Both the position numbers and the translations under genes were made by a program. From the NCBI GenBank assembly GCA_049290495.1, contig JBATNV010000318.1:4709-68708 (forward strand): DNA of 64,000 nucleotides, given 5' to 3'. The notes under the pieces were generated by a model, which worked only from the letters and a program-made list of their open reading frames with translations, made no database searches and was not told the origin of the DNA. The DNA comes from Gammaproteobacteria bacterium. GTDB taxonomy: Bacteria; Pseudomonadota; Gammaproteobacteria; Steroidobacterales; GCA-2729495. Of the stretch, positions 8,125-37,538 are shown piece after piece. Position 1 is the stretch's first letter. Each line of letters starts with the position of its first letter.

Positions 8125-8127
8125 GAC

Positions 8128-21297: not shown

Positions 21298-22311
21298 TCA
21301 GTCGGCAGCCAGCGCCTTGGAGAACCGCACTTTGCGACCGGCATCGATGATCACGGCCGCGTAACCAGGGGTCGCTTCGATCAGGGCCAGGCCGCGTTCA
21401 GGTCCGAGCACGAACACACTCGTTGAAAGGCCGTCGGTGAGTGTCGCGTCAGGACCGATGATGGTCACACTGCGGACGCCCGCCACCGGCTTGCCACTCT
21501 TTGGATCGAGGATATGGTGATAGCGCACGCCGTCTTCGTCAAAGAAGCGCTCGTAGTCGCCGGAGGTTGAGATCGCCTCGTCATCGAGTGCCAGGCGCGT
21601 CACCCACTTTGACTCGTCATCCGGATCACGAATGCCAACTACCCAGGGCTTGCCGCGCCGGTCACCCAGGAGACGCGTATCGCCGCCCGCATTGACTAGC
21701 GCATTGGTGACGCCGGCCTTGCGCAGTAACGCCACCACCTGCTCGCAGGACCAGCCCTTGGCGATGCCACCCAGGTTGATCCGCGTACCCGGCCGCGTGA
21801 AGCGTATGGTCGACTTGCCGGCATCGAGCAGGACGTGACGGTAGTTGATGGCATCGAGATTGTTCGCAATTTTCGCTTCGCTAGGCCGCTCATGAGCACG
21901 GAAGTCATAGAGGTAGCCCACGCTGTCGTAGGTGATGTCGAAGGCCCCACCGGTCTGCACAGACAGTGCCAGCGAACGGCGCACCAGCGCGAAGAGTTCG
22001 GCCGACACAACCACCGGCACAGTAGCGGCATCCCGGTTAACCACGGAGATCTCGGAACTCGCACGGTAGGTGCTCATCTCGACTTCGATGCGATCGAACT
22101 CGGCCATGCCGGCGGCGATCAGCTGCCTGGCCTGCGACTCATCATCCATCCAGAGCTGGATTTCGACGCGCGTACCCATCTTGTCCTGCTGCTCTCCGAA
22201 CCAGGCAGCACTGGCGGACAGCGGGAGAAAGACAGCAAGCAGGCTGGCGACCCAGCGAATGCGGAGCGCGTCAGAACCAGAGTGAAACGAAGAACTGCAG
22301 CACGTTGGCAT
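21298..22311 (-). CDS. apbE: FAD:protein FMN transferase ApbE
   Basis: ..MGTRVEIQLW.., ..GGAFDIT.., ..NLGGIAKGW.., ..AISTSGDYERFF..HILDPKSG.. Start uncertain; the ATG at 22311 gives a signal peptide and overlaps the upstream gene. Confidence 0.88.
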   Translation of the reverse strand: MPTCCSSSFHSGSDALRIRWVASLLAVFLPLSASAAWFGEQQDKMGTRVEIQLWMDDESQARQLIAAGMAEFDRIEVEMSTYRASSEISVVNRDAATVPVVVSAELFALVRRSLALSVQTGGAFDITYDSVGYLYDFRAHERPSEAKIANNLDAINYRHVLLDAGKSTIRFTRPGTRINLGGIAKGWSCEQVVALLRKAGVTNALVNAGGDTRLLGDRRGKPWVVGIRDPDDESKWVTRLALDDEAISTSGDYERFFDEDGVRYHHILDPKSGKPVAGVRSVTIIGPDATLTDGLSTSVFVLGPERGLALIEATPGYAAVIIDAGRKVRFSKALAAD

Positions 22312-23395
22312 CGAATTCATAAAGGGGCTCCGCACCAACGGCGCCACCGCCGTTAACATCGCGGAAATCATCATAGCTGTAGGTGTAGTGATCGAGAACC
22401 AGATTCACCGTACTGCGCAGGGGGCGGTCACCTGCCCTGTCGAGCCAGGTATAGCTCACCGCGACATGCGGGCCGTAGCTCTGGAACTTGCTCAGCTCCT
22501 TGTCACGGCCCATGTAGTTCTGCGCGTCGGCATAAGGGAACAGGTCGGAATAGAAGTCCGCAGCGTTCTGACTGTAGTAGCGATAGCGAACATCCACCAT
22601 CCACCGGTCACGCCAGGGCTGCACATAACCGATGTCAAACGTCTGCGCGTCTACACCCCAGTCATCAGTGAAGAAGCGGTATCCGCCCGAAACTGCTGCC
22701 CGATATGGCAAGTGATAGCGGATGCTGATTGCAGCGGCATTGCTGGCGCGGGTATCTGGATAAACCTCGCCCTGCCAGCCATATCCGGCGGCCTGGCCTG
22801 CATCCACATACCGCACCTGGCGATAGGGATTGTTCAGATAGCCCTCATCGGCGATCGCCTCATAGTTGAAGCTTGCCAACAGGTTCCTGGTCAGAATCTG
22901 CGTGATGCCCAGGCGGTAGGCATGCCGCTTGATCTGGCCAGAGAATGCTGAATCGCCGCGCTTGCTGACATCATCGGAGCCACTGCCATAACCGAGGGTA
23001 ATGGTGGTCAGGCCGTTGAAGATGTCCTGGCTGATGCCGAAATTCACGGTCTCTGCGTTGTAGTCGTTCTCATCGCTGCTACTGAAGCCAAAGCTCAGCG
23101 TGGTGTCCTCATGCAGGTAATCGGCGCCGACACCCCACTGTTTGCGCTCTTCAGAGTATTTGCTGGCCGTGGTGATGACGTCAATCGACGCACTGCTGAT
23201 GCTGTCCACGTAATAGCTGGCGGAGAGTGAAACTTTCTCGTTGACCGACTTGCGTACCAGCAATGACGGCCCGTCAATCTGCACGCCGCCGCCATCGTAA
23301 TAATGATAGAGGGCATCGGCACGCTCCTCGGGCAGCACACCGGCAATCGCCGCACTCACAGACAGGATCAGCAGTGTGCCGGTGCGCCACATCAT
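22271..23395 (-). CDS. DUF3570-like outer-membrane beta-barrel protein
   Basis: 374 aa, signal peptide, alternating Tyr/Gly-rich beta-strand pattern, C-terminal ..FFVSLWF. Confidence 0.8.
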   Translation of the reverse strand: MMWRTGTLLILSVSAAIAGVLPEERADALYHYYDGGGVQIDGPSLLVRKSVNEKVSLSASYYVDSISSASIDVITTASKYSEERKQWGVGADYLHEDTTLSFGFSSSDENDYNAETVNFGISQDIFNGLTTITLGYGSGSDDVSKRGDSAFSGQIKRHAYRLGITQILTRNLLASFNYEAIADEGYLNNPYRQVRYVDAGQAAGYGWQGEVYPDTRASNAAAISIRYHLPYRAAVSGGYRFFTDDWGVDAQTFDIGYVQPWRDRWMVDVRYRYYSQNAADFYSDLFPYADAQNYMGRDKELSKFQSYGPHVAVSYTWLDRAGDRPLRSTVNLVLDHYTYSYDDFRDVNGGGAVGAEPLYEFDANVLQFFVSLWF

Positions 23396-23620
23396 CTAGT
23401 TACACCCGCAGCCGCCGCCGGCACTGCCGGTGGCGCCACGCGATGCCTCGCGCGCTTCATGGACGTGATCGAGATAGGTACTGGAGACAGGATTGCGGTC
23501 AAAACTCATGATCGGGTCGGCCAGCCGGTCGCGCTCATAGGGCTTTACCCACGGCTCGACATTGCTGCACCCGGCCAGCAGCATGACGGCACCGAGGAAT
23601 ACAGCCAGCGCCGCTTTCAT
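23396..23620 (-). CDS. DUF4266-like small lipoprotein
   Basis: 74 aa; lipobox LLAGC; C-terminus ..EAREASRGATGSAGGGCGCN. Directly abuts the DUF3570 gene. Confidence 0.8.
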   Translation of the reverse strand: MKAALAVFLGAVMLLAGCSNVEPWVKPYERDRLADPIMSFDRNPVSSTYLDHVHEAREASRGATGSAGGGCGCN

Positions 23621-24132
23621 GTGCGCTCCCGTATCAGCTGGCGGATGACGTCCTGGTAAACGCTTTCGTCACCCGCCTGGTAACCCTGGTGGATGAAGCG
23701 GATATTGCCCTTGCGATCGACGATCACCGTACTCGGCATCGCGGCCACATCGTAGAGCTTGCTGACCCGGTTGGCCGGATCCAGGAGCACCGGGAAGGTC
23801 ACCGGCACATCGCCAAGAAAGGCTTCCATCTGCGTGGTGTCCTCTTCGACATTGACACCGAGCATGGTGAAGCCGAGCGGTGCATACTTTTTCTGGATCT
23901 GCTCGAGCAATGGCATTTCCTTGCGGCACGGACCGCACCAGGTCGCCCAGAAATTGATCAGCACAACCTGCCCACGCAACGAAGTGAGGGATACGGCCTG
24001 GCCGTTGCGGGATGGCAGACTGAAGTCAGCTGCTGGACCTGTTGCCTCACCCGCCGCGACCGGCAAGGACATCAGCAGACCCGACAGGCACGCAACCCGC
24101 ACAAACCGGAGCAGTTTTCTGCGCATATTCAC
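23617..24132 (-). CDS. TlpA-family thiol:disulfide oxidoreductase
   Basis: ..VVLINFWATWCGPCRKEMP.. after a signal peptide. Confidence 0.9.
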   Translation of the reverse strand: MNMRRKLLRFVRVACLSGLLMSLPVAAGEATGPAADFSLPSRNGQAVSLTSLRGQVVLINFWATWCGPCRKEMPLLEQIQKKYAPLGFTMLGVNVEEDTTQMEAFLGDVPVTFPVLLDPANRVSKLYDVAAMPSTVIVDRKGNIRFIHQGYQAGDESVYQDVIRQLIRERT

Positions 24133-24133
24133 C

Positions 24134-24811
24134 TCAGAAGAACCAGCTCAGGCCGAGCGTGAACTCGATGTTGTTGGTGGTCTTGTCTTCACCACTGATG
24201 TCGTCATCGAACAGGTGGTCGCGCACATCGAAGTGCAGGCCGATGGCATCTGTGAGCAGCAGCCGGTAGCCGCCGCCAAAGCTCAGGGTGAACATGTCTT
24301 CGTCGTGGAAGGTGGTGTTGCCGGCGCCGGCCACCACATAGAACGCCGAATTGAAGGCGTGGTTCTTGCCGATGAACACTTCGCCGGGCAGCAGGTTGTA
24401 GCCCAGCGAGAGGTCGTAATACTTGTATTTTCGGTCACTGCCGAAGGACAGGTCATAGTTACCGAGGATCTCGGCACTCGACTTGTCGACCTCGCCGGTC
24501 TGCGCATAAGTCGCTTCGGCGAACAGGCCTTCCGTTACATGGTAGGCAAGACGCGCGCCGACCACTGAGTTGGTACCGAAGTCCTCAACGCTCATCATGC
24601 CGTAGTAGCCGGTGACCTCGAAGTCCTCGCTGTCGATCTTCGGCGGCGCCACGTCGCGACGTTCGATGCGCGGATCGATGACCGGCGAGGATGCGTTTGC
24701 ATCTTCCGCAGGCTCGCGCGACCGGCCCAGCAGTGAGCAGCCAGCCGTAGCAGCCAGCAGCAGGGCCATGGCCGCTGCCCTCAGAAGAAGAAAGTGAATC
24801 CGGCTTTCCAT
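24134..24811 (-). CDS. outer-membrane beta-barrel lipoprotein (OMP_myx_plus-like)
   Basis: Lipobox ..LAATAGC; C-terminal ..IEFTLGLSWFF. Begins 1 nt upstream of the next gene. Confidence 0.8.
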   Translation of the reverse strand: MESRIHFLLLRAAAMALLLAATAGCSLLGRSREPAEDANASSPVIDPRIERRDVAPPKIDSEDFEVTGYYGMMSVEDFGTNSVVGARLAYHVTEGLFAEATYAQTGEVDKSSAEILGNYDLSFGSDRKYKYYDLSLGYNLLPGEVFIGKNHAFNSAFYVVAGAGNTTFHDEDMFTLSFGGGYRLLLTDAIGLHFDVRDHLFDDDISGEDKTTNNIEFTLGLSWFF

Positions 24812-25521
24812 TCGTCCAGTTCCTCGTTGTCGTCATTACTGGTGAAGACCAGGTAGCTTGAATACTCGGCACGGAACATGAAGCGCTTCGTCACGTAGAT
24901 ACGCGCACCGAGCCCTACGTGTCCCACCTGGTCGCTCCGGTCTTCGGTACTCACCAGGGTTGCTTTTGGATTGATCTGGATAATCCCCGTGCCCAGCAGG
25001 GCGAAGGGTGAAATGCGCCAGGCCGGAAACGGCTGATGCACGATATCCACGGTCGCCAGCAAGCCATCGGAATAGTCCCCGCTCACATCACCCACCCTGG
25101 CCTCCACCGACAGGTTGCGGGTCAGGTGGTAGCCCGCGTACACGGATATCACGCTCGCACCATCCAGATCGCCGAGTCCGACGCCGGCTTCCCAGCGGCG
25201 GGCCTTGTAGTCATCGACATCCGGGTCCTTGATCTTCGTTGCGGAGCCACTGACGTCGAGCGTGGCGCTCATCTCCTCGAGCTTCACCCAGCCCTTGGTA
25301 CCGCGGTCGGTCCGCACCTGGAACCAGTCCGTACGTCGCTTCAGGACTTCAATGTGCTGACCACGATCTACGACATGAAACACCGGAAAGCCCCGCCCTG
25401 GACCGGTGTGGAGCTCGAGAAAGGGCTCGGCAACCACCGCTTCATAGTGGGCGGTTTTTGCATAAGCGGGTGTGACGAGGGCCAAGGAAACCAGCATCAG
25501 CATGACGACGACTGTACGCAT
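24781..25521 (-). CDS. SH3-domain plus outer-membrane beta-barrel protein
   Basis: ATG at 25521 with AGGA upstream; signal peptide MRTVVVMLMLVSLALVTPAYA. SH3-like ..GQHIEVLKRRTDWFQVRTDRGTKGWV..; C-terminal ..WKAGFTFFF. Confidence 0.8.
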   Translation of the reverse strand: MRTVVVMLMLVSLALVTPAYAKTAHYEAVVAEPFLELHTGPGRGFPVFHVVDRGQHIEVLKRRTDWFQVRTDRGTKGWVKLEEMSATLDVSGSATKIKDPDVDDYKARRWEAGVGLGDLDGASVISVYAGYHLTRNLSVEARVGDVSGDYSDGLLATVDIVHQPFPAWRISPFALLGTGIIQINPKATLVSTEDRSDQVGHVGLGARIYVTKRFMFRAEYSSYLVFTSNDDNEELDEWKAGFTFFF

Positions 25522-25538
25522 CGGTGTTTCCTGCAGAC

Positions 25539-28178
25539 CTAGTTCAGGGGCGCCTGAAACGGATCGTTGTAGTACTGCGCACCGATATCCACCCACTCGG
25601 AAATCAGGCGCAGTTCTGCCGGCGACAGGCGGCCTGCGTGCGTACCCCCGGCTGCAAAGCGGCTGAAAAAGCGCGTCGAGTTACGCGCTCCGGCAGTCGA
25701 CAGCGACGCACTGACCGATACAGGACTGAAGACCGGATCGCCGGTTACCGGATCGACGCCGGTCTGCACCAGGCGGTCGGCAAGCGCGCCTTCGACGAGT
25801 TCCTGCTCATTATCCGTGGAGAGCAACTCGCGGTAGGCCTTGAAATGATCGCCGTTGATATCAGAGGCACCGTCTGACAGATCGAGCTGGCCGGCCGGCA
25901 GCTGCACGGTACCCAGCACGCTGACAGGCGCATGGCAGCTCGTACAGGTGTCATCGCTGAGTACCGTAACGCCGTCACCGGCCAGCGTCTGGCGGGGTTT
26001 GCTCCACAGCGGGTGTATGTGTGCCTCGTAGTTGATCGTGATCCGGCAGTGCGGCGCCCAGCTGTCGAGGCAGTCAGCGCTGGTCGGTATCGGCGTGCTG
26101 AGATCTGTATAACGCCAGGCAAAGCTCGAATCTGCAGGCCGGCCAGCCGCAACGGGATCGGTCCAGATATCGTCGTAGACGACATCCTCGTCCAGAGCGA
26201 TCAGCTGACAGTCGGTTGCGCAGCTGATGCGCTTCTTGACCTGCGCCATGGTCTCGCCGAAATCCGCAAAGAACGCAGTGTTGGTGTTCGGGAACGGCTG
26301 ACCGTCAGCCGTAGCACCGCTCCATGCGCTCGTGAAAGCAGCCTGCCGCCCGTGCGACACCTGGTTCTGTGTCGAGTGGCAGCCGTTGCAGGCCAGCACC
26401 TCACCGGGACGCAGCTGCAGCCAGTTCTGATGGCGCGCAGTGATGCGTCGCCCGTCTGCATCCAGTACCGACAGCGCGATCGGCACGTTGGCAGGCACCC
26501 GCACCACGACCGAACCATCCGGCTCGACTGGCGCATAACCGAGAATCTCGCGCATGCCCTGCCCCGCGCTGACACCAAACGCGCTGTTGTCGAAGTCACG
26601 CACATCCCGGTCTGGCAAGGCCACAGCTTTTTCGATGCGCAGAAAGCGCGCCTGACGCTGGGCGGCTGTGGTCTGCGCCGGATCGGCCACTGCGCTGATG
26701 TTTAGCGAAGCCCTGCCATCAAAGTCATAGACACTGCGGATATCGATCAGGCCCTGCTCATTCATCACGAGTTCCGGATCGAGCTGACCGGTCGAGGCCT
26801 GGTCAAAGATTACCGGCGGCAGCGTTCGCGGCTGTGCCGCCACGAGGTCGCTGACCAGTACATTCTCGGTAGGCGAGAACACCGGCAACTGCGTTCCGGC
26901 CACCGGATCGAAGATCCACACGCCATAGAGCGGAAAAGCCGGCCGCGCGTCGGGCGCTGCCAGTGCTGCCGCCGTGCAAGGCACGATCTTGTCATCGACG
27001 TCCAGCAAGCGGCAGGGGCTCCAGACCGTGAACATCCGGCCGGTACCATCCCAGAGCGGGAACGCAGCGCCGAATGTGCCACCGGGTGAGATGCCATCAT
27101 CGGTGCGCACATCATTGACCACAGTGCGAACCTGCGCCGGTCCGACCAGACCGGCATTGGCGGCGGTCGGCTGCAGGTTTTCTACAAAGTGCTCGGCATC
27201 GATGCTGACCAGGTCGCCACCACCGTCATCCACCTCAAAGGGCCGGATCACGCTAAGGATGCGTCCGTCCGGCAGCTCGCGTGGTTGCGAGAACTGGATG
27301 GTTGCACCATCGGTACCGGTATCGTGACTGCGCGAGCCGTAGTAGAGCTCAAGACCCGTTCCATCCGGGTTCATCCGGTAAAGGTTCATCTCGCTGTTGC
27401 CGGCCGCGTTGTCCCAGCGACTGAACAGAATCTGTCCGTTGGCCAGCACCGAGGCATCAAGGTCGTGGCTCTGGTTGAAAGAAATCTGGTGTATGTCGCT
27501 GCCATCGGCATTCATGACATGCAGCACAAATGCCGGCTCATTGCGGTCCTCATCCTGCGCATCGAACTGTTGCTTGCCTTCGTCGATCAGCACGGCCTTT
27601 GATTGCCGCTGCCGGGTCGAAGAAAAGACGATGCGGCCATCCGGCAGATACGCCGGCGCGATGTCCTGCCCGGTTTCGGCATTCAGATCGGAGCTGATCA
27701 CCCGGCGCAAGGTGTCACCCGCGAAGTTGTACTCCCAGATGTTCCAGGTGGGCTGGTCTTCTTCGTCGGCACCGGCCACGAATGGACCGCGCATCGCGAA
27801 AATGAGCGTGGCACCGTCCCAGGACACTTCCGGATCGCGGATATCGTAGAGACCGCTGGCCTGCGTTATGCGTTCAGTAATGTTGCGCTCAACGGCGGTA
27901 ACTGCCGCGCGCTCGCGCACATAGAGATCGGCGCCGATATCGAAGCGGCGCAGTTCGCGCAGATCAGAAGCCTGCAATGCGCCCTGCGCATCAACCGGCA
28001 GCGGCCGCTTGACGTACGCGATCGGCACATCGACCACGACCGGATCCGGGTTCTGCTCGCCACCGACGCCACCGCCGCCGCAGGCAGAGAGCCCGAAGGC
28101 GACTGCAGTCCACAGCAATAGACTGCAGACGGAAATTCTCCGCCCGCGTAATTGAATATTTCGCGTCACTAAAACCAT
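25539..28178 (-). CDS. beta-propeller (TolB/PD40-like) dihaem c-type cytochrome lipoprotein, hydrazine-synthase-alpha-like architecture
   Basis: Lipobox ..AFGLSAC. PD40-like repeats (..DGRIVFSS.., ..NGQILFSRW.., ..MNPDGTG..). Two CXXCH motifs in the C-terminal third (LACNGCHS, CTSCHAP). Start 28178 or 28184. Confidence 0.8.
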   Translation of the reverse strand: MVLVTRNIQLRGRRISVCSLLLWTAVAFGLSACGGGGVGGEQNPDPVVVDVPIAYVKRPLPVDAQGALQASDLRELRRFDIGADLYVRERAAVTAVERNITERITQASGLYDIRDPEVSWDGATLIFAMRGPFVAGADEEDQPTWNIWEYNFAGDTLRRVISSDLNAETGQDIAPAYLPDGRIVFSSTRQRQSKAVLIDEGKQQFDAQDEDRNEPAFVLHVMNADGSDIHQISFNQSHDLDASVLANGQILFSRWDNAAGNSEMNLYRMNPDGTGLELYYGSRSHDTGTDGATIQFSQPRELPDGRILSVIRPFEVDDGGGDLVSIDAEHFVENLQPTAANAGLVGPAQVRTVVNDVRTDDGISPGGTFGAAFPLWDGTGRMFTVWSPCRLLDVDDKIVPCTAAALAAPDARPAFPLYGVWIFDPVAGTQLPVFSPTENVLVSDLVAAQPRTLPPVIFDQASTGQLDPELVMNEQGLIDIRSVYDFDGRASLNISAVADPAQTTAAQRQARFLRIEKAVALPDRDVRDFDNSAFGVSAGQGMREILGYAPVEPDGSVVVRVPANVPIALSVLDADGRRITARHQNWLQLRPGEVLACNGCHSTQNQVSHGRQAAFTSAWSGATADGQPFPNTNTAFFADFGETMAQVKKRISCATDCQLIALDEDVVYDDIWTDPVAAGRPADSSFAWRYTDLSTPIPTSADCLDSWAPHCRITINYEAHIHPLWSKPRQTLAGDGVTVLSDDTCTSCHAPVSVLGTVQLPAGQLDLSDGASDINGDHFKAYRELLSTDNEQELVEGALADRLVQTGVDPVTGDPVFSPVSVSASLSTAGARNSTRFFSRFAAGGTHAGRLSPAELRLISEWVDIGAQYYNDPFQAPLN

Positions 28179-28370
28179 CACCATCCCTGTCACAGCCTGC
28201 CCAAGACTGTGTGTGCATCTGACCTGATGCGCGGCGCCCAATCGCCTGCCAGCTAACCTAATGCATAGCGATTTGAACGAACTGTTAAGGCGGTCACAGA
28301 ACCCCGGGCCGCTGATAACGATAAATGCTCAACGGCGTGCAATGCGCCGCGTTACCGGGATGGGCACAAG

Positions 28371-29573
28371 GTGATTGTTACGCAACGAGGACGGCACAGA
28401 GCCGTCACTTCGAAGCTTGGGTCTGTGCGGCTGTTAAGGCAGTTGACTGCAATTGCGGCACTGACACTACTCAGCCAGACGGGCATCGCGGGGCCACGCG
28501 AGCAGGCCTGGCGCATGCACGAAAGACTCACGGGCATACCGCCTGATTCCATCGTACTTGAAAACATGCGCGCTGATATCGCCGGTGGCAATGCGGTCGC
28601 GGCCGCACAGATCGCCATGGAAAACAGTGCCTTTTACAACGTAACGCTGAAGAACTTTGTTGCGCCGTGGACCAATGAGGAGCAGAGCGTTTTCGTACCG
28701 CTGAACGACTACACCGCCACCGTGATCGGCATGGTGCGCGACGATGTGCCCTTCAACACGCTGCTCTCGGCAAATCTCGTTTACATCGGCTCAGGGTCGG
28801 GCATTCCTGCCTATTCGCCATCGAATAATGACCATTACCAGGCACTTGAAGACCAGAACGTTGATCTGAAACAGCGCCTGGTCGCCAGTACGCAGACGGC
28901 CGTGAGCGGCATGCCATCAAGCGCCACTGCCGGCGTCCTGACCACGCGCGCCGCTGCCGCCGCCTTCTTTGAAGCCGGCACCAACCGCGCCATGTTCCGC
29001 TTCACGATGATCAATCACATGTGCCGCGACATGGAGCAGGTACTCGACACCAGCGGCATCCCCGACCGGATCCGCCAGGACGTGTCACGCAGCCCCGGCG
29101 GCGACAGCCGGATCTTTCTTAACAACTGCATCGGCTGCCACATTGGCATGGATCCGATGACCCAGGCCTTCGCTTACTACAACTTCGACGCAGCACAGGG
29201 CCGGCTGGTCTATACGGACGGACAGGTGCAGGCGAAGTACTTCAACAACGACACGACCTTCCAGTACGGCTACCGGACGCCGAACGACAATTGGACGAAC
29301 TACTGGCGCCATGGCCAGAACCGGATACTCGGCTGGGACCCCAGCCGCAGCGGCAGCGGTGCAGGCGCGAAGACCATGGGCGAGGAACTCGCCAACAGCA
29401 CCGCCTTTGCGCAGTGTCAGGTGGAGAAGGTCTTCCGCAACGTCTGCCTCCGATCGCCGGTGGATGGTGCTGACCGCGCACAGATCGATTCGATGGTCGG
29501 CGATTTCCGCACGGGTGGCTATCACCTGAAGCAGGTGTTCGCCGAATCCGCCAGCTACTGCATGGGCAATTGA
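28371..29573 (+). CDS. CXXCH protein, DUF1588/PSCyt-like
   Basis: ..NNCIGCHIGMDPMTQAFAYYNFD.. resembles the C..CH..DP..F motif of planctomycete-type DUF1588 proteins. Signal-like N-terminus. Start uncertain (GTG 28371 or GTG 28425). Confidence 0.75.
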   Translation: MIVTQRGRHRAVTSKLGSVRLLRQLTAIAALTLLSQTGIAGPREQAWRMHERLTGIPPDSIVLENMRADIAGGNAVAAAQIAMENSAFYNVTLKNFVAPWTNEEQSVFVPLNDYTATVIGMVRDDVPFNTLLSANLVYIGSGSGIPAYSPSNNDHYQALEDQNVDLKQRLVASTQTAVSGMPSSATAGVLTTRAAAAAFFEAGTNRAMFRFTMINHMCRDMEQVLDTSGIPDRIRQDVSRSPGGDSRIFLNNCIGCHIGMDPMTQAFAYYNFDAAQGRLVYTDGQVQAKYFNNDTTFQYGYRTPNDNWTNYWRHGQNRILGWDPSRSGSGAGAKTMGEELANSTAFAQCQVEKVFRNVCLRSPVDGADRAQIDSMVGDFRTGGYHLKQVFAESASYCMGN

Positions 29574-29593
29574 GCGGGGATAACCGGGTGAAC

Positions 29594-32047
29594 ATGAAAC
29601 TGATTCTCGCTGCCCTCCTCGCTGCACTGCTGGCCGGTTGCGGCGGCGGTTCGAGCACAACGGCGAAGGCACCGAGTAGCCTGCCGCCACCGGCCACCTA
29701 CTCCGGGCCGCCAGCACAGAACGAGGAAATCCTGCATTTCCAGAACTCGCTGTGGGTAAACGTCCGCAATGGCGGCGTGGCCCGCTGCGCCGGCTGCCAC
29801 GGCGCCACGCAAGACCCGACCTTTGCCCGCGATGACGACGTCAATCTCGCCTGGCAAGCCGCTGATCCGCTCATCAACCGCAACGATCCGGCCAACTCGC
29901 CGATCGTGCAGAAGATGGCCGGCGGCCATAACTGCTGGCTGGGAACCAATCAGGCTGCGGTGCAGGCCTGCGCCACGACCATGCAGGCCTGGGTAGAAGC
30001 CTGGCTGGATGGCAGCGGCACCGGTGGCACGCGACAGATACAACTGGTCGCGCCGCCCGATCATGAGGTCGGCCAGAGCCGCAATTTTCCGGTCGACTCG
30101 GCTGGCTACGCCGCCAATGTCTGGCCACTGGTGCGCCAGTACTGCGCTGGCTGCCATAACTCTTCGGCAGCCACCCGCCAGTCACCCTACTTCGCTGATG
30201 ACGACGTGCAGAGCGCCTATCTCGCCGTAAAGACCAAGATCGATCTCGATGATCCGGACCAGTCGCGGCTGGTACTGCGTCTGCGCGACGAGTTTCACAA
30301 CTGCTGGAGCGACTGTGCCGCGAATGCAACGACCATGGAGAACGCGATCCGCGCCTGGGCGCAGCAGATTCCGCTAACCGCAGTTGATCCGCAACTGGTG
30401 ATCAGCAAGGCGCTGACCATGTACCAGGGGACCGTCGCCAGCGGCGGCAGCCGCAATGAAGCCAGCCAGATCGCGCTGTGGGAATTCAAGGAAGCCAGCG
30501 GCAGTACGGCATACGACACCAGTGGCGTACAGCCGGCGATCAATCTCAGTTTGTCCGGCGACATCCAGTGGGTCGGCGGCTGGGGCATCGATATCCGCAG
30601 CGGCAAGGCACAGGGTTCGACGACCGCCAGCCGCAAGCTCCGCGACATGATCACCGCGACCGGGCAATACAGCGTTGAAGCCTGGGTAGCACCTGCCAAC
30701 GTCAACCAGGAAGACACGCGGATCATCAGCTACTCCGCAGGTCCGACGCTGCGCAACTTCACGCTCGGGCAGACGCTCTACAGTTACGACTTCTACCATC
30801 GCAGCAGCAGCACCGATGCAAACGGTGGACCGGCACTGAATACCGCAGCTGCGGATGAAGATGCGCAGGCGACCCTGCAGCACGTGGTACTGACCTTCGA
30901 TCCGGTCAACGGGCGACACGTGTATGTGAACGGCGTGGATACGCAGGACGCAGACCCGGTTGCCGGCGGCACGCTCGGCGACTGGGACAACACCTTCGCC
31001 CTGGTACTCGGTAATGAGCCTTCGGGTGACAGGCAGTGGCGCGGCGTGCTGCGTCTCGCAGCGATTCACAACCGTGCGCTCACCGCCACGCAAGTGCAGG
31101 AGAACTTCGATGCCGGCGTGGGCGAGCGTTTTTACCTGCTCTTCAATGTCAGCGCACAGGTCGGCGCGCCCGACAGCTACATCATGTTCGAAGTCAGCCA
31201 GTTCGACAGCTACAGCTACCTTTTCTACCGGCCCACCTTTATCAACCTCAATCCGGACTGGCAGCCATCCGGCAACATTCCCGTTCGCGGTCTGCTCATC
31301 GGCGCCAACGGTACCGAAGTGCCAGTCAGCCAGGCGTGGGGAAACCTGAACGAGGTCGTCAGCACCGACAAGGGCTACTCACCTGAAACCGGCCAGGTCC
31401 TGTCCAGCCTCGGTACGGTAGTGCCGCTGGAGAAAGGGCCGGATGCGGATGAGTTCTTCCTGAGCTTTGCCGTACTCGGCGGCAGCACCAATGTGCGTGT
31501 CGAACCGGCCCCGCTCACGCCACCACCACCGGCAGATGGTGAGCCGCAACCCGACATCGGCGTAAAAACCTTTGACGAGATCAACGCCACCATGGCGACG
31601 ATCACCGGCGTCGCAGCGACCACGCCGGCCGTCAAGGCGACCTTTGCGCTCGTTCGCCAGCAATTGCCGTCGATCGACGACGTGTCGGCAGTGCTCGCCT
31701 CGCACCAGGTGGGCATCGCCCAGCTGGCTATCGAGTACTGCAACGCGCTGGTCAATGACACAGGTCTGCGCAGCTCGGTATTCCCCGGCTTCAACTTCAG
31801 TGCGCCGGCCAACCAGGCTTTCGACACATCCGGCGAACGCGATCTGATCTTCGGCCCGCTGTTGCGCCGCTCGATGGGCACCGGGCTACTCAGCCAGCCG
31901 GACGAAGCGAACGTGCGCCTGGAACTCGACAACCTGGCCACCACACTCACCAGTTGCGGCGGCAGCTGCGCTGCCGACCGTACCGCTACCGTGGTCAAGT
32001 CAGCCTGTGCTGCAACCATCGGCAGTGCCGCAACCCTGGTGCAGTAG
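29594..32047 (+). CDS. lipoprotein with two CAGCH modules and a LamG-like domain
   Basis: MKLILAALLAALLAGC lipobox. CAGCH codons begin at 29786 and 30143, each followed by an HNCW motif. Central LamG/concanavalin-like region (..QYSVEAWV..TLQHVVLTFD..RWRGVLRLAAIHNRALT..). Confidence 0.85.
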   Translation: MKLILAALLAALLAGCGGGSSTTAKAPSSLPPPATYSGPPAQNEEILHFQNSLWVNVRNGGVARCAGCHGATQDPTFARDDDVNLAWQAADPLINRNDPANSPIVQKMAGGHNCWLGTNQAAVQACATTMQAWVEAWLDGSGTGGTRQIQLVAPPDHEVGQSRNFPVDSAGYAANVWPLVRQYCAGCHNSSAATRQSPYFADDDVQSAYLAVKTKIDLDDPDQSRLVLRLRDEFHNCWSDCAANATTMENAIRAWAQQIPLTAVDPQLVISKALTMYQGTVASGGSRNEASQIALWEFKEASGSTAYDTSGVQPAINLSLSGDIQWVGGWGIDIRSGKAQGSTTASRKLRDMITATGQYSVEAWVAPANVNQEDTRIISYSAGPTLRNFTLGQTLYSYDFYHRSSSTDANGGPALNTAAADEDAQATLQHVVLTFDPVNGRHVYVNGVDTQDADPVAGGTLGDWDNTFALVLGNEPSGDRQWRGVLRLAAIHNRALTATQVQENFDAGVGERFYLLFNVSAQVGAPDSYIMFEVSQFDSYSYLFYRPTFINLNPDWQPSGNIPVRGLLIGANGTEVPVSQAWGNLNEVVSTDKGYSPETGQVLSSLGTVVPLEKGPDADEFFLSFAVLGGSTNVRVEPAPLTPPPPADGEPQPDIGVKTFDEINATMATITGVAATTPAVKATFALVRQQLPSIDDVSAVLASHQVGIAQLAIEYCNALVNDTGLRSSVFPGFNFSAPANQAFDTSGERDLIFGPLLRRSMGTGLLSQPDEANVRLELDNLATTLTSCGGSCAADRTATVVKSACAATIGSAATLVQ

Positions 32048-32082
32048 TCGCACCGAAGCAGAGCCGACCGAGGCAAAGAAAT

Positions 32083-33699
32083 ATGTCACGCAGAAGCAGG
32101 AATTACTTCGAACCCCAGCGCCATCCGGAGCACCCGCGGCCCATCACGCGGCGCCAGCTGATATCGCAGGGCTTCATGGCGGGCACGGCGACGGTACTTG
32201 GCGGCGGCATACTGAGCCTGTTTGCCAATCCACGCGCTGCCTATGCAGCCCTGGCACCGGACCTGGAAGCACTCAAGGCCTCCTGCGGTATAGCAGTGCA
32301 GGGTGCCGGAAAGATTCCTTTCATCTGCTTCGACCTGGCCGGCGGCGCTAGTATGGCTGGCTCGAATGTGCTGGTCGGTGGTGCGGGCGGACAGCTCGAC
32401 TTTCTCTCCAGCGCCGGCTACAGCAAGCTCGGCCTGCCCGGCGACATGATTCCGCCGGTGATCAGCGCAGTCACGCAGCAGGACCATGTTGACGACAGCA
32501 TGGGCCTCGCCTTCCACAGCGACAGTGCCTTTCTGCGTGGCATGCAGGGCAGCATGAGCGCCGGCACTGCGGCAAACATCAACGGTGCAGTGATTCCCGC
32601 GCGTTCTGAAAACGACACCGGCAACAATCCACATAACCCGCTGTACGGCATCGCGCGCGCCGGTGCGGACGGTTCGCTGCTGAAGCTGGTCGGTTCACGC
32701 AACAGTGATTCCGGCGGCAACTCGGTATCGCCCATGGCCATGGTCAACGCCGCCGATCGCCCGACCAAGATCGACCGGCCCAGCGACGTCACCGGTCTCG
32801 TCGATACCGGACAGCTCGTCGGTCTGCTCGGCCAGGCCGATGCGGTAGCGGTACTCGAGTCGATCCAGCGCATCAGTGCGATGAAACTGCAGCGGGTCAG
32901 TACCGGACTCAGCATGCCTGATCCACTTAACCCGGCAGTCACGCGCGATGAAGTCATCAAGGACCTGGTGAGTTGCGGCTATGTGAAATCAGCCGATATC
33001 GCCGACCGCTTCGGTAATCCTGCCAGCCTCAATCCCTCCATCGATCCCTTTATCGTCGGCGGCAGCGGCATCTTCACGCAGAGCGAATACGACAGCGACG
33101 ATGAATTCAGAAAGACGGCCGCGGTGATGAAGCTGGTGGTCAATGGCTTTGCCGGTGCCGGCTGCGTCACGATGGGCGGCTATGACTATCACGGCGGCCG
33201 CCGTGCCGAAGGCGAAGTGAAGGACTTTCGCGCCGGTCGCTGCATGGGTGCCTGCCTGGAATACGCAGCACGCATCGGTATGCCACTGATGCTCTACGTG
33301 TACAGCGATGGTTCACTCTCAAGCAACGGCAGCATCGACAATACAGTGAATGGCCGCGGCAAGGGCGAGTGGACCAGCGACAACCAGACTACGGCCGCAT
33401 CATTCTTCCTGGTCTACAACCCCGGTGGCCGCGCGACGCTACTCGGCAGCACGCCGGAGCAGCAGGCGAGACACCAGCAAATCGGCTACTTCCGCAGCGA
33501 CGCTTCGGTGGAAACCGCAGCGACGCCGGCCGCGAACAACGTCAATCTGCTGGTCGAAACCGTGCTGCTCAATTACATGGCGCTGCACGGACAGCAGGGT
33601 AACTTCGCAGGCCTGTTTCCCGGTCACGGTCTCGGCAACAGCAGTCTGCGCGATTCGCTGACCGCCTTTGCGCCAATCGTGAACGGTTCAATCCTTTAA
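32083..33699 (+). CDS. Tat-exported DUF1501/DUF1552-like protein
   Basis: GAGG 9 nt before the ATG at 32083. Twin-arginine signal ..ITRRQLISQGFMAGTATVLGGG..AYA; ..MGGYDYHGG.. sulfatase-fold-like motif. Confidence 0.8.
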   Translation: MSRRSRNYFEPQRHPEHPRPITRRQLISQGFMAGTATVLGGGILSLFANPRAAYAALAPDLEALKASCGIAVQGAGKIPFICFDLAGGASMAGSNVLVGGAGGQLDFLSSAGYSKLGLPGDMIPPVISAVTQQDHVDDSMGLAFHSDSAFLRGMQGSMSAGTAANINGAVIPARSENDTGNNPHNPLYGIARAGADGSLLKLVGSRNSDSGGNSVSPMAMVNAADRPTKIDRPSDVTGLVDTGQLVGLLGQADAVAVLESIQRISAMKLQRVSTGLSMPDPLNPAVTRDEVIKDLVSCGYVKSADIADRFGNPASLNPSIDPFIVGGSGIFTQSEYDSDDEFRKTAAVMKLVVNGFAGAGCVTMGGYDYHGGRRAEGEVKDFRAGRCMGACLEYAARIGMPLMLYVYSDGSLSSNGSIDNTVNGRGKGEWTSDNQTTAASFFLVYNPGGRATLLGSTPEQQARHQQIGYFRSDASVETAATPAANNVNLLVETVLLNYMALHGQQGNFAGLFPGHGLGNSSLRDSLTAFAPIVNGSIL

Positions 33700-33726
33700 G
33701 GGCGTTTCCGATGCCATAATCGCTGC

Positions 33727-35100
33727 ATGTCAGCTCCCGCACTCGCAGCTCATCTCGCCTGTCCCCGCTGCGAGCAGTCACTCCGGCAATACCCGGACCG
33801 CAGCTGGGGCTGCGGTGCCTGTGGCCTCAACTTTCCCTCGCTGCTCGATGTGCCCTGCCTGTTTGCCGAGCCTGCGGCCACCTTGGCCGAATGGCGCGGG
33901 CGACTGCAGTTCACCCTCGAAAAGCTGGGCCATGAGGCCGTTGAGCTGCAGACCGAACTGCAAAACCCTCGACTGCGTCCACTGACCCGTGATCGCTTGA
34001 GCCTGCTCAACCGCGCAACTCTCGATCAGCTGAAACGGCTGCGCGAGCTGCTTTCACCGCTGGCGATCCACCAGGCACAGGCGGCACTCGCGACACATCT
34101 CGCCTTGCAGACGCGGCTGCCAGGCGACCAGGGGCTGACCACCTACTACCCGAATATTCATCGCGACTGGGCCTGGGGCGAGGCCGAGAACGAGGCGACG
34201 CTTCGGCTGGTTGGCGGCGCACTGCCGGGCCGGGAAACCATCGACAGCCTGCTGGTGCTGGGTTCTGGTGCGGGACGTCTCGCCTACGACCTGCATCAGG
34301 AATACGCGATCGGTGTCACGCTGGCGCTCGATTTTAATCCACTGCTCACACTGCTGGCACGGCGCGCCACCGCTGGTGAAGCCACCGAACTCTGGGAATT
34401 TCCGCTGGCGCCACGCACGCTGGCAGAACACGCCATCCTGCGCGAGCTGGTTGCACCGGAACCGGTACGTGCAGGTTTTCAGCTGCTGCTTGGCGATGCG
34501 CTGCGACCGCCGCTGACTGCCGCGAGCTTCGACGTGATCGTCACGCCATGGGTGGTCGACATCCTGCCGGAAGACTTCCGTGTGCTCGCCGCGCGAATCA
34601 ACAGCCTGCTGAAAACCGGCGGTCGCTGGATCTGTTTTGGCTCACTCAGCTTTGGCCAACCGCTGGCCAGCCAGCGCTACAGCCTCGAAGAAGCACTCGC
34701 CATCGTGATGGACAGCGGCTTTGCCGAACCGGATGTGCGCGAGGACGACATTCCTTATATGTGCTCTCCGGCCAGCCGGCATGGTCGACTGGAGACTGTC
34801 GTGACCATCGTCGCCGACAAGGAACGCAGCGTGGCGCTGCCACCCCGTCACCGCGCCCTGCCCGACTGGCTGGTCAACGGCACGCAACCGGTACCACTGC
34901 TGCCCGCTTTCGAACTGCAGGCCATGACCACCCGCATCTACTCATTCATCATGGGCATGATCGACGGCCGCCGTTCGATCCGTGACATGGCAAAGCTGCT
35001 CGTCGATCAGCGCCTGATGAGCCGCGAAGAAGCCGAGCCCGCGGTACGCAACTTCCTGATCAAGATGCACGAGGATAGCCAGCGCCCGCCCGGGCTTTGA
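33727..35100 (+). CDS. zinc-ribbon / SAM-dependent methyltransferase / PqqD-like (RRE) fusion protein
   Basis: N-terminus CPRC..CGAC (Trm112-like ribbon). LLVLGSGAGRLAYDL (SAM motif I). C-terminus ..IYSFIMGMIDGRRSIRDMAKLLVDQRLMSREEAEPAVRNFLIKMHE (PqqD pattern). Confidence 0.8.
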   Translation: MSAPALAAHLACPRCEQSLRQYPDRSWGCGACGLNFPSLLDVPCLFAEPAATLAEWRGRLQFTLEKLGHEAVELQTELQNPRLRPLTRDRLSLLNRATLDQLKRLRELLSPLAIHQAQAALATHLALQTRLPGDQGLTTYYPNIHRDWAWGEAENEATLRLVGGALPGRETIDSLLVLGSGAGRLAYDLHQEYAIGVTLALDFNPLLTLLARRATAGEATELWEFPLAPRTLAEHAILRELVAPEPVRAGFQLLLGDALRPPLTAASFDVIVTPWVVDILPEDFRVLAARINSLLKTGGRWICFGSLSFGQPLASQRYSLEEALAIVMDSGFAEPDVREDDIPYMCSPASRHGRLETVVTIVADKERSVALPPRHRALPDWLVNGTQPVPLLPAFELQAMTTRIYSFIMGMIDGRRSIRDMAKLLVDQRLMSREEAEPAVRNFLIKMHEDSQRPPGL

Positions 35101-35112: not shown

Positions 35113-36486
35113 TTAATCCGCTGCGCTGGCCATCAACGGCAAACGCAGTTGCACTTCGGCACCGCCGAGTCCCGAGCGCCTGATCTCGACGCTGCCGTGA
35201 TAGAGGCCGACGATTTCGCGTACCACGGCGAGGCCGATGCCCTGGCCGGGGACATCGCCACGCTGATCAGCGCGGATACCGCGGCCGAGAACCGAGCTGG
35301 CCTGATCATCGGGAATGCCCGGCCCGTCGTCGGCCACGGTGATCAGCAATGCGTCGCTTCCACCCATGCCAACCGTCACCACGACGCGGCCGGCACACCA
35401 CTTCCAGGCGTTGTCGAGCAGGTTACCGAAGATCTCGTAGAGATCGCCCGACTCAGCGGGATAGCTCACCCCATCCGGAAGCTGCAGTTCGCAATCAACG
35501 GTTTTGTCACGATGGATCTTGCGCAGACTGCTGACGATCTCGTCGAGCAGCGGCGCGAGTAGCACGGCGCGGGCGGCGAGGCTGCGTGGGCCGGACGCGG
35601 CAGCGCGCCGCAGCTGGTAATCGACCACGCCCTGCATGCGATCGATCTGTGCACGCAGTGTGTTGGCATCGGGCTGGCGGCCGGCGAGTTCCGTACGCAC
35701 GACGGCCAGCGGCGTTTTCAGGCTGTGAGCCAGGTCGTCCATGGTGGTGCGATAGCGATCCATGCGCTGTCGTTCGGAACCGAGCAGCGTGTTGAGCCGG
35801 CGCGTCACGCCTTCCAGCTCCCGTGGATAGTCGGCGCCGAAGGCTTCCTGCCGACCCGCTTCGATTGCGGATATTTCCTCCGACATGCGCCGCAGCGGCC
35901 GAAGTGCAAAGCGGATGGTCAGCCACAGCGCTGCGAGCAATACAAACATGACGCCGGAGAACCAGGCGAGCAGCTGTTGCCTGAAACGATCGAGCTGCGC
36001 TTCGTAGCCAGCCAGATCGGCAGCCGCAAACACCTGGAACGCCGGTGTCGCATCGGGTCCGAGTTCCCAGTTGATGCCGAGCCCGAACAGCAGCACCTCA
36101 CTGCCATCCGGCAACTGGCGTCGCTTGACTGCACGCTGGCCGGCTTTCAGCGTCGCGCCCGGCGCAAGCTCCAGGCCAACGGCTGATGGCGAACGCCACA
36201 GCGGCAGACCGGAGGCGTCGAGAATCTCGGCATAGAGCCCGGAACCCGGATTGCGCAGCCGCGGCTCGAGCAGACGCCTCGGCACAGTCAAGTCGCCAGT
36301 ATCGTCAGCTTCGGCCGCACCGATCAGTGCCAGCACCTGTAGCTCAAGCTGTTCAGTCAGCGCGGCTTCGGCGCTGCGTCTGAAGACTACGTCGAGCACG
36401 ACAATGGTGATAGCGAATGCTGCGATGAGCATCACCGCGGTAATCAACAGCAGCTTGCGACTCAGCGAAGCACGGCGGCGCGACAC
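35113..36486 (-). CDS. sensor histidine kinase (two TM, HAMP, HisKA, HATPase)
   Basis: ..DDLAHSLKTPLAVV.. H-box; ..GNLLDNAWKW.., ..DDGPGIP.., ..GQGIGLAVV.. Confidence 0.92.
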   Translation of the reverse strand: MSRRRASLSRKLLLITAVMLIAAFAITIVVLDVVFRRSAEAALTEQLELQVLALIGAAEADDTGDLTVPRRLLEPRLRNPGSGLYAEILDASGLPLWRSPSAVGLELAPGATLKAGQRAVKRRQLPDGSEVLLFGLGINWELGPDATPAFQVFAAADLAGYEAQLDRFRQQLLAWFSGVMFVLLAALWLTIRFALRPLRRMSEEISAIEAGRQEAFGADYPRELEGVTRRLNTLLGSERQRMDRYRTTMDDLAHSLKTPLAVVRTELAGRQPDANTLRAQIDRMQGVVDYQLRRAAASGPRSLAARAVLLAPLLDEIVSSLRKIHRDKTVDCELQLPDGVSYPAESGDLYEIFGNLLDNAWKWCAGRVVVTVGMGGSDALLITVADDGPGIPDDQASSVLGRGIRADQRGDVPGQGIGLAVVREIVGLYHGSVEIRRSGLGGAEVQLRLPLMASAAD

Positions 36487-36498
36487 GCGTGACCTGCC

Positions 36499-37182
36499 TC
36501 AGCCCGCTTCCGGCGCGCGCGGCATCCGGTAGCCCTGCCCGCGGATGGTTTCGATCAGGCCAAGCTTGCGCTCCGGATCGAGCTTGTTGCGCAGGCGGGT
36601 CAGCAGCACTTCGACCACATTGCTGTCGCGCCCCTCATCGTGGTCATAGAGTTGATCAGCCAGCTGCGCCTTGCTTACCACCTGGCCGGCACGCATGACC
36701 ATGATTTCAAGCAGCCGGTATTCGAAAGCCGTGAGCGTTACCACCTGCTCATCGACGCGCACTTCGCGGGCCTGCGTGTTCATGGCAATCGGACCGGCGC
36801 GCAGCACCGGTTGCGCGTGACCGGCGGCCCGGCGCAGCAAGGCATTGATGCGCGCCTTGAGCTCATCGATGTTGAAGGGCTTGACGACGTAATCGTCAGC
36901 ACCGGCATTCAGGCCATTGACCTTGTCCTGCCAGTGCTCGCGTGCGGTAAGGATCACAACCGGAAAGGAATGCTGCGCGGCACGCAGGCGCTTGATCAGT
37001 TCCACGCCGGAACGATCCGGCAAACCCAGATCGATGATGGCAAGCTGGACGGCAAATTCAGCCGCGAAGTACTCGGCTTCGCTCGCCGTTCCGGCCTCAT
37101 CAACAGTGAAATCAGCCGCGCGCAGCATCGCTGCCAGTGACTGGCGCAGCGCCGCATCATCTTCAACGATCAGCAGGCGCAT
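36499..37182 (-). CDS. OmpR/PhoP-family response regulator
   Basis: MRLLIVEDD..IIDLGLPDRSG..VKPF..; winged helix ..IETIRGQGYRM. Confidence 0.92.
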   Translation of the reverse strand: MRLLIVEDDAALRQSLAAMLRAADFTVDEAGTASEAEYFAAEFAVQLAIIDLGLPDRSGVELIKRLRAAQHSFPVVILTAREHWQDKVNGLNAGADDYVVKPFNIDELKARINALLRRAAGHAQPVLRAGPIAMNTQAREVRVDEQVVTLTAFEYRLLEIMVMRAGQVVSKAQLADQLYDHDEGRDSNVVEVLLTRLRNKLDPERKLGLIETIRGQGYRMPRAPEAG

Positions 37183-37192
37183 CTTTAAGCCC

Positions 37193-37516: not shown

Positions 37517-37538
37517 TGTCGAGGCTGATCCGGATACT

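Follow-up and report, generated by a model that had tools for sequence, protein, structure and literature searches.

A 64,000-nt stretch of a gammaproteobacterial genome (assembly GCA_049290495.1, contig JBATNV010000318.1; hereafter the window) carries at positions 21298-35100 two divergent gene arms encoding exported proteins with c-type haem, flavin-attachment and thiol motifs. The locus raises the question of whether these genes belong together, how far the system that they form extends, and what it does at the cell envelope. Comparison with related loci showed that the divergon is conserved in hundreds of Gammaproteobacteria, and the divergon together with a Glt/Agl-type gene block at 6635-16300 very probably makes up one conserved system.

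Composition and conservation of the redox divergon

The open reading frames (ORFs) and their translations place seven closely packed genes on the minus strand (28178->21298) and four on the plus strand, as follows.

21298-22320, minus strand: ApbE, flavin adenine dinucleotide:protein flavin mononucleotide (FMN) transferase with a Sec signal (Pfam ApbE, 282 bits)
22271-23395, minus strand: DUF3570 outer-membrane barrel with DSISSAS and DVITTAS sites and an LWF end (PF12094, 154.6 bits)
23396-23620, minus strand: DUF4266 lipoprotein with a GGGCGCN end, that is, a C-terminal CXC (PF14086, 80 bits)
23617-24126, minus strand: TlpA/ResA-like periplasmic thioredoxin with WCGPC (Pfam Redoxin, 104.7 bits; NCBIfam ResA, 112 bits, below its cut-off)
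24134-24811, minus strand: OMPlipo, an outer-membrane beta-barrel lipoprotein with a WFF end (NCBIfam TIGR04565, 155.7 bits against a cut-off of 60)
24781-25521, minus strand: SH3OMP, SH3_3 domain plus outer-membrane beta-barrel with an FFF end (Pfam SH3_3, 38.6 bits; OMP_b-brl, 41.1 bits)
25539-28178, minus strand: lipoprotein of 879 amino acids resembling the alpha subunit of hydrazine synthase (HZS), with a PD40 propeller and haem domains in the middle (CNGCH) and at the C-terminus (CTSCH) (Pfam HZS_alpha, 61.9 bits)
28179-28370, no strand: divergent intergenic region (sequence reading)
28371-29573, plus strand: PSD2cyt, a monohaem (CIGCH) secreted protein, weakly PSCyt3/PSD2-like (PSD2, 19.8 bits against a cut-off of 25.8)
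29594-32047, plus strand: LamGcyt, a dihaem (2x CAGCH) LamG lipoprotein whose C-terminal 300 amino acids match no family (Pfam Laminin_G_3, 69.6 bits)
32083-33699, plus strand: TatX, a protein exported by twin-arginine translocation (Tat), without a family and with a conserved leader before the RR (no Pfam or PDB match; AlphaFold2 model with a predicted local distance difference test score, pLDDT, of 87.7)
33727-35100, plus strand: cytoplasmic S-adenosylmethionine methyltransferase with an N-terminal Cys4 ribbon and a PqqD-like C-terminus (Methyltransf_11, 27 bits; CARME; PqqD, E = 0.0095)

The order on the minus arm from 28178 is HZS-alpha-like propeller lipoprotein, SH3OMP, OMPlipo, TlpA, DUF4266, DUF3570 and ApbE, and along it the first two genes are 17 nt apart, the next pair overlaps by 31 nt or is separated by 11 nt, and then come a spacing of 1-7 nt, an overlap of 4 nt, a junction of 0 nt and an overlap of 41-50 nt. 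An export signal of the Sec, lipoprotein or Tat type was read on 10 of the 11 products. The exported set includes three outer-membrane barrels, ending in SLWF (DUF3570), SWFF (OMPlipo) and TFFF (SH3OMP), four lipoproteins, and exactly five c-type haem sites (CXXCH) in the HZS-like protein, PSD2cyt and LamGcyt. A sequence-only reading of the same DNA had named the seven packed minus-strand genes with overlaps or gaps of at most 17 nt, an intergenic region of about 190 bp, five CXXCH motifs in three proteins, the WCGPC of TlpA, ApbE, the GGGCGCN end of DUF4266 and three barrels ending in Phe, and all of these were borne out; its description of the products as extracytoplasmic haem, flavin-target and thiol proteins was likewise supported. 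In contrast, its five plus-strand genes and twelve products, eleven of them exported, had to be corrected to four plus-strand genes and 11 genes in all, the product without an export signal being the cytoplasmic methyltransferase with the PqqD-like tail.

Three genes adjoining the divergon (35113-37963, minus strand) encode a histidine kinase, a regulator of OmpR type and a PepSY protein. They were dropped as candidate regulators, and are probably not regulators of the cluster, because they are not conserved beside it: no counterpart was found in any of the 80 related loci.

The related loci were obtained by scanning one genome per GTDB species with the HZS-like protein, whose family has more than 6,300 database matches, none of which carries a name; the scan yielded at least 560 relatives, and 80 loci were taken. 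Among the 53 species-level loci with enough flanking sequence on both sides, 52 keep an eight-gene core in the same order and orientation (TatX-LamGcyt-PSD2cyt <> HZS-SH3OMP-OMPlipo-DUF4266-DUF3570), with the HZS-like anchor protein at 49-62% identity across conserved loci. Because all seven partners of the HZS-like gene are kept in these 52 loci, the core is one conserved unit and not a product of chance, and the earlier suggestion of one system rather than a fortuitous neighbourhood was supported by synteny. The carriers comprise Woeseiaceae, Steroidobacteraceae, Chromatiales, Thiodiazotropha symbionts, Kangiellaceae, Aliiglaciecola and Marinobacter, and a 100%-identical TatX protein comes from a wastewater metagenome. 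The sole full-flank locus lacking TatX, OMPlipo, DUF4266 and DUF3570 (L055, CP070821.1) retains LamGcyt, PSD2cyt, the HZS-like gene and SH3OMP, and its cluster may have decayed or been rearranged. The remaining genes are accessory, with TlpA present in 36 of 66 loci, the methyltransferase downstream of TatX in 31 of 57, and ApbE in 18 of 80. ApbE occurs on the same strand after DUF3570, convergent to DUF3570, or at the end of the opposite arm, and this placement on either arm ties the two arms together.

The TlpA-DUF4266-DUF3570-ApbE set had been taken for an uncharacterised recurrent module. Its recurrence stands; the set is, however, already described in flavinylation-associated clusters, in which flavinylation of a DUF3570 protein at two sites was demonstrated experimentally, the C-terminal CXC of DUF4266 and the thioredoxin/DUF4266 association were reported, 316 DUF3570 clusters lack a linked DsbD, and some clusters are linked to iron transporters (Meheust et al. 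2021, PMC8238504). The locus in the window is like those clusters in having an extracytosolic ApbE, DUF3570, a thioredoxin-like protein and a DUF4266 protein with C-terminal CXC, and no linked DsbD was found among the window ORFs scanned or the recurrent neighbour families. It differs from them in that two extra barrels and the HZS-like cytochrome flank the module, in the presence of PSCyt-like cytochromes, a Tat protein and a Glt-like motor, and in the replacement of the Gly of the flavinylation motif. The Asp, Ala and terminal Ser of the tandem flavinylation-type sites are conserved in 59 of 71 DUF3570 orthologues, and Gly occurs at the first site in only 2, being usually replaced by Ser or Thr. 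Moreover, the GGGCGC of the DUF4266 tail is invariant in an alignment of 24 orthologues. A profile search of the PDB with DUF3570 gave nothing significant; a weak match to SlipAM, the Slam barrel, was seen in the DUF3570 protein (E = 0.008).

A Glt/Agl-type block beside the redox genes

Upstream in window coordinates, nine minus-strand genes make up the second block.

6635-7597, minus strand: TonB-like transducer of GltG/AgmX type, with an N-terminal transmembrane helix and a C-terminal AgmX/PglI domain (NF033768, 69.5 bits against a cut-off of 40)
7594-8124, minus strand: ExbD/TolR-like protein 2, AglQ/S-like (Pfam ExbD, 50.2 bits; syntenic in f14-anchored loci)
8128-8640, minus strand: ExbD/TolR-like protein 1 (Pfam ExbD, 61.8 bits)
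8660-9310, minus strand: ExbB/TolQ/MotA-type proton channel, AglR-like (Pfam MotA_ExbB, 106 bits; 51-91% identity to relatives)
9706-10338, minus strand: small TPR protein of 210 amino acids in a GltC/GltE-like position (Pfam TPR; weak GltE match)
10316-13141, minus strand: large secreted TPR protein of 941 amino acids in a GltD-like position (Pfam TPR; 33-47% identity to members of family f11 beside the redox cluster)
13138-15048, minus strand: secreted TPR protein of 636 amino acids (Pfam TPR; found in 24 of 80 genome loci and nearly all f14-anchored loci)
15058-15636, minus strand: f14, a secreted 192-amino-acid protein, first gene of the Glt-like block (no Pfam or NCBIfam family; orthologues 52-87% identical)
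15650-16300, minus strand: TlpA2, a second periplasmic thioredoxin-like protein with a likely start near 16141 (AhpC-TSA, 85.6 bits; Redoxin, 73 bits)

The link between this block and the redox genes was found in both directions. When the ORFs of the 80 genome loci were clustered, the secreted f14 protein of about 190 amino acids and large TPR proteins recurred beside ApbE, DUF3570 or TatX, and f14 with the 636-amino-acid TPR gene adjoined the redox cluster, on either arm, in 25 of the 80. For the reciprocal test, f14 served as the anchor in metagenome contigs, and the 80 loci that best matched a profile of the cluster-linked f14 genes were taken. In this set a thioredoxin-like gene lies immediately upstream of f14 in 54 of 55 loci; TatX, the methyltransferase, ApbE or DUF3570 was found upstream on the same strand in 26 of the 27 loci whose upstream flank extends for 3 kb or more; and all 16 loci with enough downstream sequence run on into TPR-TPR-ExbB-ExbD. 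In a microbial-mat locus whose HZS-like protein is 73% identical (L083), the genes from HZS through the TonB-like gene are all on one strand, and the sole break is an unannotated stretch of about 1.1 kb from ApbE to the riboswitch described below. The TonB-like gene closes the operon in L083, L091, L108 and others, as it does in the window. Locus L109 carries a second riboswitch, f14 and TPR genes (12726-14117) right after its first complete Glt-like block, and is a tandem duplication of the Glt-like module.

In the window, ApbE and TlpA2 are separated by an insertion of four unrelated genes (16514-21233). One of them, on the plus strand, encodes an NAD(P)-binding protein; the others encode a secreted protein resembling CpeT/DUF1001, an ATP-grasp protein and a GNAT-BKACE fusion. 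The adjacency of ApbE and GNAT-BKACE is common to the window and its 86%-identical relative L082, in which other genes are inserted on both arms of the divergon. The earlier statement that no TonB component is present is right for 21298-35100. It is misleading for the system, because the system includes a Glt/Agl-type machine of ExbB, ExbD, TonB-like and TPR proteins, and its ExbB/ExbD/TonB-like cluster, 5 kb away in the window, is contiguous with the redox genes in relatives. Likewise, a larger undescribed system had been proposed; it does extend past 14 kb, with this machine and the riboswitch, but its thiol and flavin part had been described before.

The composition of the block matches that of the gammaproteobacterial Agl-Glt 'core complex' (Luciano et al. 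2011, PMC3169522), a conserved cluster without known function made up of gltD/E/C, gltG, aglR/Q/S and an additional gene. In the window, too, a single cluster encodes one protein like TolQ/ExbB, two like TolR/ExbD, an AgmX-type TonB-like protein and three TPR proteins, and it holds an extra gene. In addition to its AgmX/PglI domain, the TonB-like protein gave weaker matches to GltJ, GltG and TonB_C, the GltG and GltJ scores lying far below their cut-offs. The small TPR protein is homologous to a family (f38) that follows the large TPR genes in L013, L052 and L057, and reaches 34 bits with the NCBIfam GltE model against a cut-off of 225. A weak TPR_Slam match was observed in the same protein, and a TPR+SlipAM protein is encoded at 61009-62316 (29 bits against a cut-off of 22). 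The SlipAM and TPR_Slam matches may hint at surface-lipoprotein translocation.

Riboswitch and promoter motifs

The 5' leader of TlpA2 contains one further element.

16315-16416, minus strand: c-di-GMP-I-GGC riboswitch aptamer, a GEMM-I variant of the cyclic di-GMP (c-di-GMP) class (Rfam RF03167, 71.3 bits against a gathering threshold of 59; E = 3.5e-15)

It lies 15-170 nt upstream of TlpA2 and is followed on its 3' side by a GC-rich hairpin (GACGCAGGCC-tgtg-GGCCTGCGTC) and then a pyrimidine-rich tract. An RF03167 riboswitch also precedes TlpA2 in L002, L005 and L006, whereas upstream of PSD2cyt an RF03167 riboswitch was found in L007 and a c-di-GMP-I match in L024. A covariance model built from these matches was run on both locus sets. 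It recovered the riboswitch in 10 of 83 loci of the first set, adding L014 and L019 upstream of PSD2cyt, and in 22 of the 80 f14-anchored loci, with one upstream of the HZS-like gene in L156. Since the element thus occurs before TlpA2, PSD2cyt and HZS-like genes across lineages, all three transcription units are, by prediction, under the same riboswitch class in one lineage or another.

The intergenic regions between PSD2cyt and the HZS-like gene contain a second recurrent motif, TGTC-N10-GAGACATTACA, with TATAAT or TATACT about 17 nt further on (L011, L012, L014, L016-L019, L021, L027, L028, L032, L041, L043, L044, L062, L069, L070, L074-L076 and L078). In Woeseiaceae-type loci this promoter/operator motif is directed at the HZS arm, in Steroidobacteraceae-type loci at the PSD2 arm; no exact copy is present in the window's own intergenic region. 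A separate motif resembling a sigma-54 -24/-12 promoter, TGGCACA-N4-TTGCTTTA, points toward PSD2cyt in long intergenic regions (L014, L015, L019, L037, L044, L050, L053, L062, L074 and L075), with the riboswitch-like element downstream of it in L014 and L019.

Elsewhere in the window, two neighbouring minus-strand genes unrelated to these findings encode a 1150-amino-acid protein of odd architecture, combining FecR, TPR and a TonB-dependent-receptor-like barrel (48973-52425), and a CHASE2 adenylate/guanylate cyclase (52459-54672).

Proposed function and rival explanations

The divergon would form the redox and outer-membrane half of the system and the Glt/Agl-type block its other half, and we see an even chance that the whole, about 20 genes, is one envelope machine coupled to the proton-motive force and equipped with an outer-membrane haem/flavin/thiol module. 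ApbE-type enzymes transfer FMN to Ser/Thr sites of proteins, TlpA-type thioredoxins are kept reduced by DsbD/CcdA, Tat substrates are exported folded, and ExbB/ExbD convert the proton-motive force into movement of a TonB-like protein toward the outer membrane. In such a machine the DUF3570 barrel would receive FMN from ApbE at its two tandem Ser sites, and this flavin may be fed by a dithiol relay in which TlpA passes electrons to the CGC tail of DUF4266. The flavin in turn would bridge the two-electron chemistry of the thiols and the one-electron chemistry of the haems in the HZS-like, LamG and PSD2-like proteins, and these three cytochromes may work with the Tat enzyme on some substrate at the outer membrane. 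The redox function is one that we infer from the sequences, and the thiol-to-flavin-to-haem direction of electron flow is tentative, being somewhat more likely wrong than right. The Glt-like half, namely the ExbB/2xExbD proton channel, the AgmX-type TonB-like transducer, three secreted TPR scaffolds and f14, would assemble, gate or move the outer-membrane complex. This role of motor and scaffold is modelled on the Agl-Glt machinery of Myxococcus, by which GltA/B/H, GltK and CglB, a propeller lipoprotein, are driven. In part of the lineages a GEMM-I-type riboswitch before one or other operon would regulate expression.

Several observations weigh against a machine of this kind. TlpA, ApbE and the methyltransferase are absent from many loci, and the Woeseiaceae-type genome loci have no Glt-like block within 10 kb. 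The f14-anchored set is biased toward linked examples, because its 80 loci were chosen as the best matches to a profile that was itself derived from f14 genes linked to the cluster. The TPR proteins and barrels were matched to Glt proteins by position and composition, not by homology. Both DUF3570 sites carry Ser or Thr in place of the Gly of the canonical motif ([S/T]GA[S/T]). The best NCBIfam scores of TlpA are with ResA/CcmG-type models, and since ResA is its best match, TlpA (and TlpA2) could simply mature the CXXCH sites, which is the conservative alternative. The window ORFs scanned and the related loci yielded neither DsbD/CcdA nor a quinol dehydrogenase, nor any obvious terminal enzyme. 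Finally, to our knowledge the cognate ligand of the GGC riboswitch variant has not been established.

A bolder version is doubtful, in which the ancestral Agl-Glt 'core complex' has its long-missing output module in the redox genes, with a thiol-flavin-haem electron route to the cell surface unrelated to Mtr-type conduits. A machine driven by the proton-motive force and controlled by a cyclic-dinucleotide riboswitch would then position or gate the flavinylated barrel and the cytochrome lipoproteins. MtrCAB-type porin-cytochrome conduits offer a functional analogy only, in that an outer-membrane barrel is combined with redox lipoproteins; in contrast to them, the present system has no multihaem cytochromes, has a predicted covalent flavin tied to a barrel, and shows no homology.

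Among the alternatives, an Agl-Glt/Nfs-type surface machine for adhesion, surface movement or polymer handling survives best, and we consider it unlikely. The propeller and LamG lipoproteins would be surface cargo or adhesins, with the haem, flavin and thiol groups serving maturation, sensing or structure. The fusion of a Glt-like core to the cluster fits such a machine, as do control by a riboswitch of the c-di-GMP class, LamG as a typical binding domain and the resemblance of TlpA to ResA/CcmG maturation factors. The three barrels, small lipoprotein and propeller lipoprotein are also alike in composition to the Myxococcus Agl-Glt/Nfs outer-membrane complex with its GltA/B/H, GltK and CglB (PMC11761067). 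However, orthologues keep the five haem sites, the two sites of flavinylation type and the CXC tail with little or no variation, a heavy redox load for pure mechanics, and gliding was deemed unlikely for the core complex alone (PMC3169522). The haem/flavin/thiol cargo and riboswitch control set the present locus apart from Agl-Glt, and cytoplasmic AglZ/MglA-type parts are absent.

The preferred envelope machine must also be compared with an energised acquisition system, which we regard as quite unlikely, in which a TonB-like motor and the barrels import iron, haem or another metal, the thiol, flavin and haem groups effect reduction or release, and the Tat enzyme processes the cargo. ExbB, ExbD and TonB-like genes are indeed present, CXC tails could bind metal, and the iron-transporter links of some DUF3570 clusters (PMC8238504) point the same way. 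Against import, no enrichment of Fur boxes was found in 76 divergent intergenic regions (mean best match 10.9/19, compared to 10.7 in shuffles), and the conserved set contains no plug-domain TonB-dependent receptor, ABC transporter or periplasmic binding protein. Moreover, the TonB-like protein is of AgmX type and not a classical TonB.

Oxidative processing of glycans or esters, as proposed for the PSCyt genes of Planctomycetes-Verrucomicrobia-Chlamydiae bacteria, is improbable; here LamG would bind carbohydrate, TatX would be a sulfatase- or phosphatase-like hydrolase and the cytochromes would be its redox partners. The PSCyt/PSD and DUF1501/DUF1552 pairs of Planctomycetota and Verrucomicrobiota, for which a context with carbohydrate-binding modules and sulfatases is described (PMC5615132), are alike in having a PSD2/PSCyt3-like haem protein and a LamG protein beside a Tat protein. 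In contrast to those pairs, the domain scores here are below the Pfam cut-offs and TatX is neither DUF1501 nor DUF1552. PSD2cyt orthologues gave a weak PSD2 match in 24 of 24 (best E = 6e-6) and a PSCyt3 match in 17 of 24, which loosely links PSD2cyt to planctomycete-type cytochromes at the sequence level; profile searches of the PDB with PSD2cyt and LamGcyt gave nothing significant. The Glt-like motor and the DUF3570 module are left unexplained by glycan processing, and the conserved neighbourhood holds no glycoside hydrolases, SusCD or sulfatase-maturing genes.

TatX itself carries the twin-arginine motif TRRQLI. Its earlier assignment to the DUF1501/1552 type failed, as no Pfam match was obtained for the protein or 68 diverse relatives at E up to 10; Pfam and NCBIfam hold no family for TatX or f14, and a profile search of the PDB with TatX gave nothing significant. 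The family comprises 1,497 clusters at 50% identity, and an alignment of diverse members raised the pLDDT of the AlphaFold2 model from 46.6, obtained with a shallow alignment, to 87.7. This model gave no Foldseek match at E <= 0.001 (best E = 0.012, template-modelling score <= 0.28), which tells against a hydrolase assignment. The 50 top weak matches were all alkaline-phosphatase-superfamily enzymes, as they had been with the earlier poor model, and this fold is a weak lead from modelling, not an assignment. The TatX leader (residues 1-26, window 32083-32160) is strongly conserved (P11, R13, H14, H17, P20 and T22-R23-R24) and may serve in recognition by a maturation factor, for example the PqqD-like methyltransferase. 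The neighbouring methyltransferase has weak Pfam matches and none in NCBIfam, and we speculate that its PqqD-like domain binds this leader. Five relatives of TatX (P0148, P0205, P0222, P0234 and P0237) carry the public name 'general secretion pathway protein GspF', apparently a misannotation, as these proteins contain no Pfam domain.

A nitrogen-oxide, hydroxylamine or hydrazine enzyme akin to anammox hydrazine synthase is very improbable. The HZS-like profile aligns collinearly along the full length of the HZS alpha subunit (PDB 5C2V, chain A) in four segments covering the propeller, the haem middle domain and the C-terminus. The propeller, haem middle domain and C-terminal haem domain follow in the same order, both haem c motifs are kept, and H847 was tentatively aligned with the distal alpha-His772. 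However, the protein is a lipoprotein and its similarity is remote (50 bits with the equivalog model NF052339, whose cut-off is 800). The first CXXCH continues as CNGCH-STQN, with no Tyr at +4 and so no equivalent of Tyr591; the Tyr-ligated, Zn-associated haem site (Tyr591, His587-Zn) is lacking, and no beta- or gamma-subunit homologue was found among the conserved neighbours. Hydrazine-synthase function was rejected because of the missing Tyr591 equivalent and partner subunits, and the sequence comparison points to an HZS-alpha-like fold that is not a hydrazine synthase. Other non-anammox HZS-alpha homologues are known that also lack the key residues and have no assigned function (PMC12758564).

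A fortuitous juxtaposition of independent modules is hardly credible: the genes inserted between ApbE and TlpA2 in the window and on both arms in L082 would fit it, but it is contradicted by synteny, by the core kept in 52 of 53 loci, the reciprocal linkage in 26 of 27, and the common riboswitch class and operator.

In a full-text search DUF3570 or DUF4266 occurred in four papers, which contained no description of this combination, and searches on HZS-alpha homologues and PSCyt/DUF1501 yielded no functional data. The union of known families, mostly without assigned function, with a Glt-type motor and a GEMM-I-variant riboswitch appears to be undescribed so far. With these findings the flavinylated DUF3570 module, the non-anammox HZS-alpha homologues and the gammaproteobacterial Glt core complex, the ancestor of the gliding and sporulation machines, become parts of one system, and each of the three gains a concrete context and testable partners, for which the cultured hosts Lentisalinibacter sediminis C23 and Aliiglaciecola lipolytica are available. 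The orphan-looking c-di-GMP-I-GGC riboswitch variant likewise gains a defined regulon. Woeseiaceae and Steroidobacteraceae are dominant or abundant in marine sediment and soil, and an envelope redox machine in such lineages could matter for element cycling.

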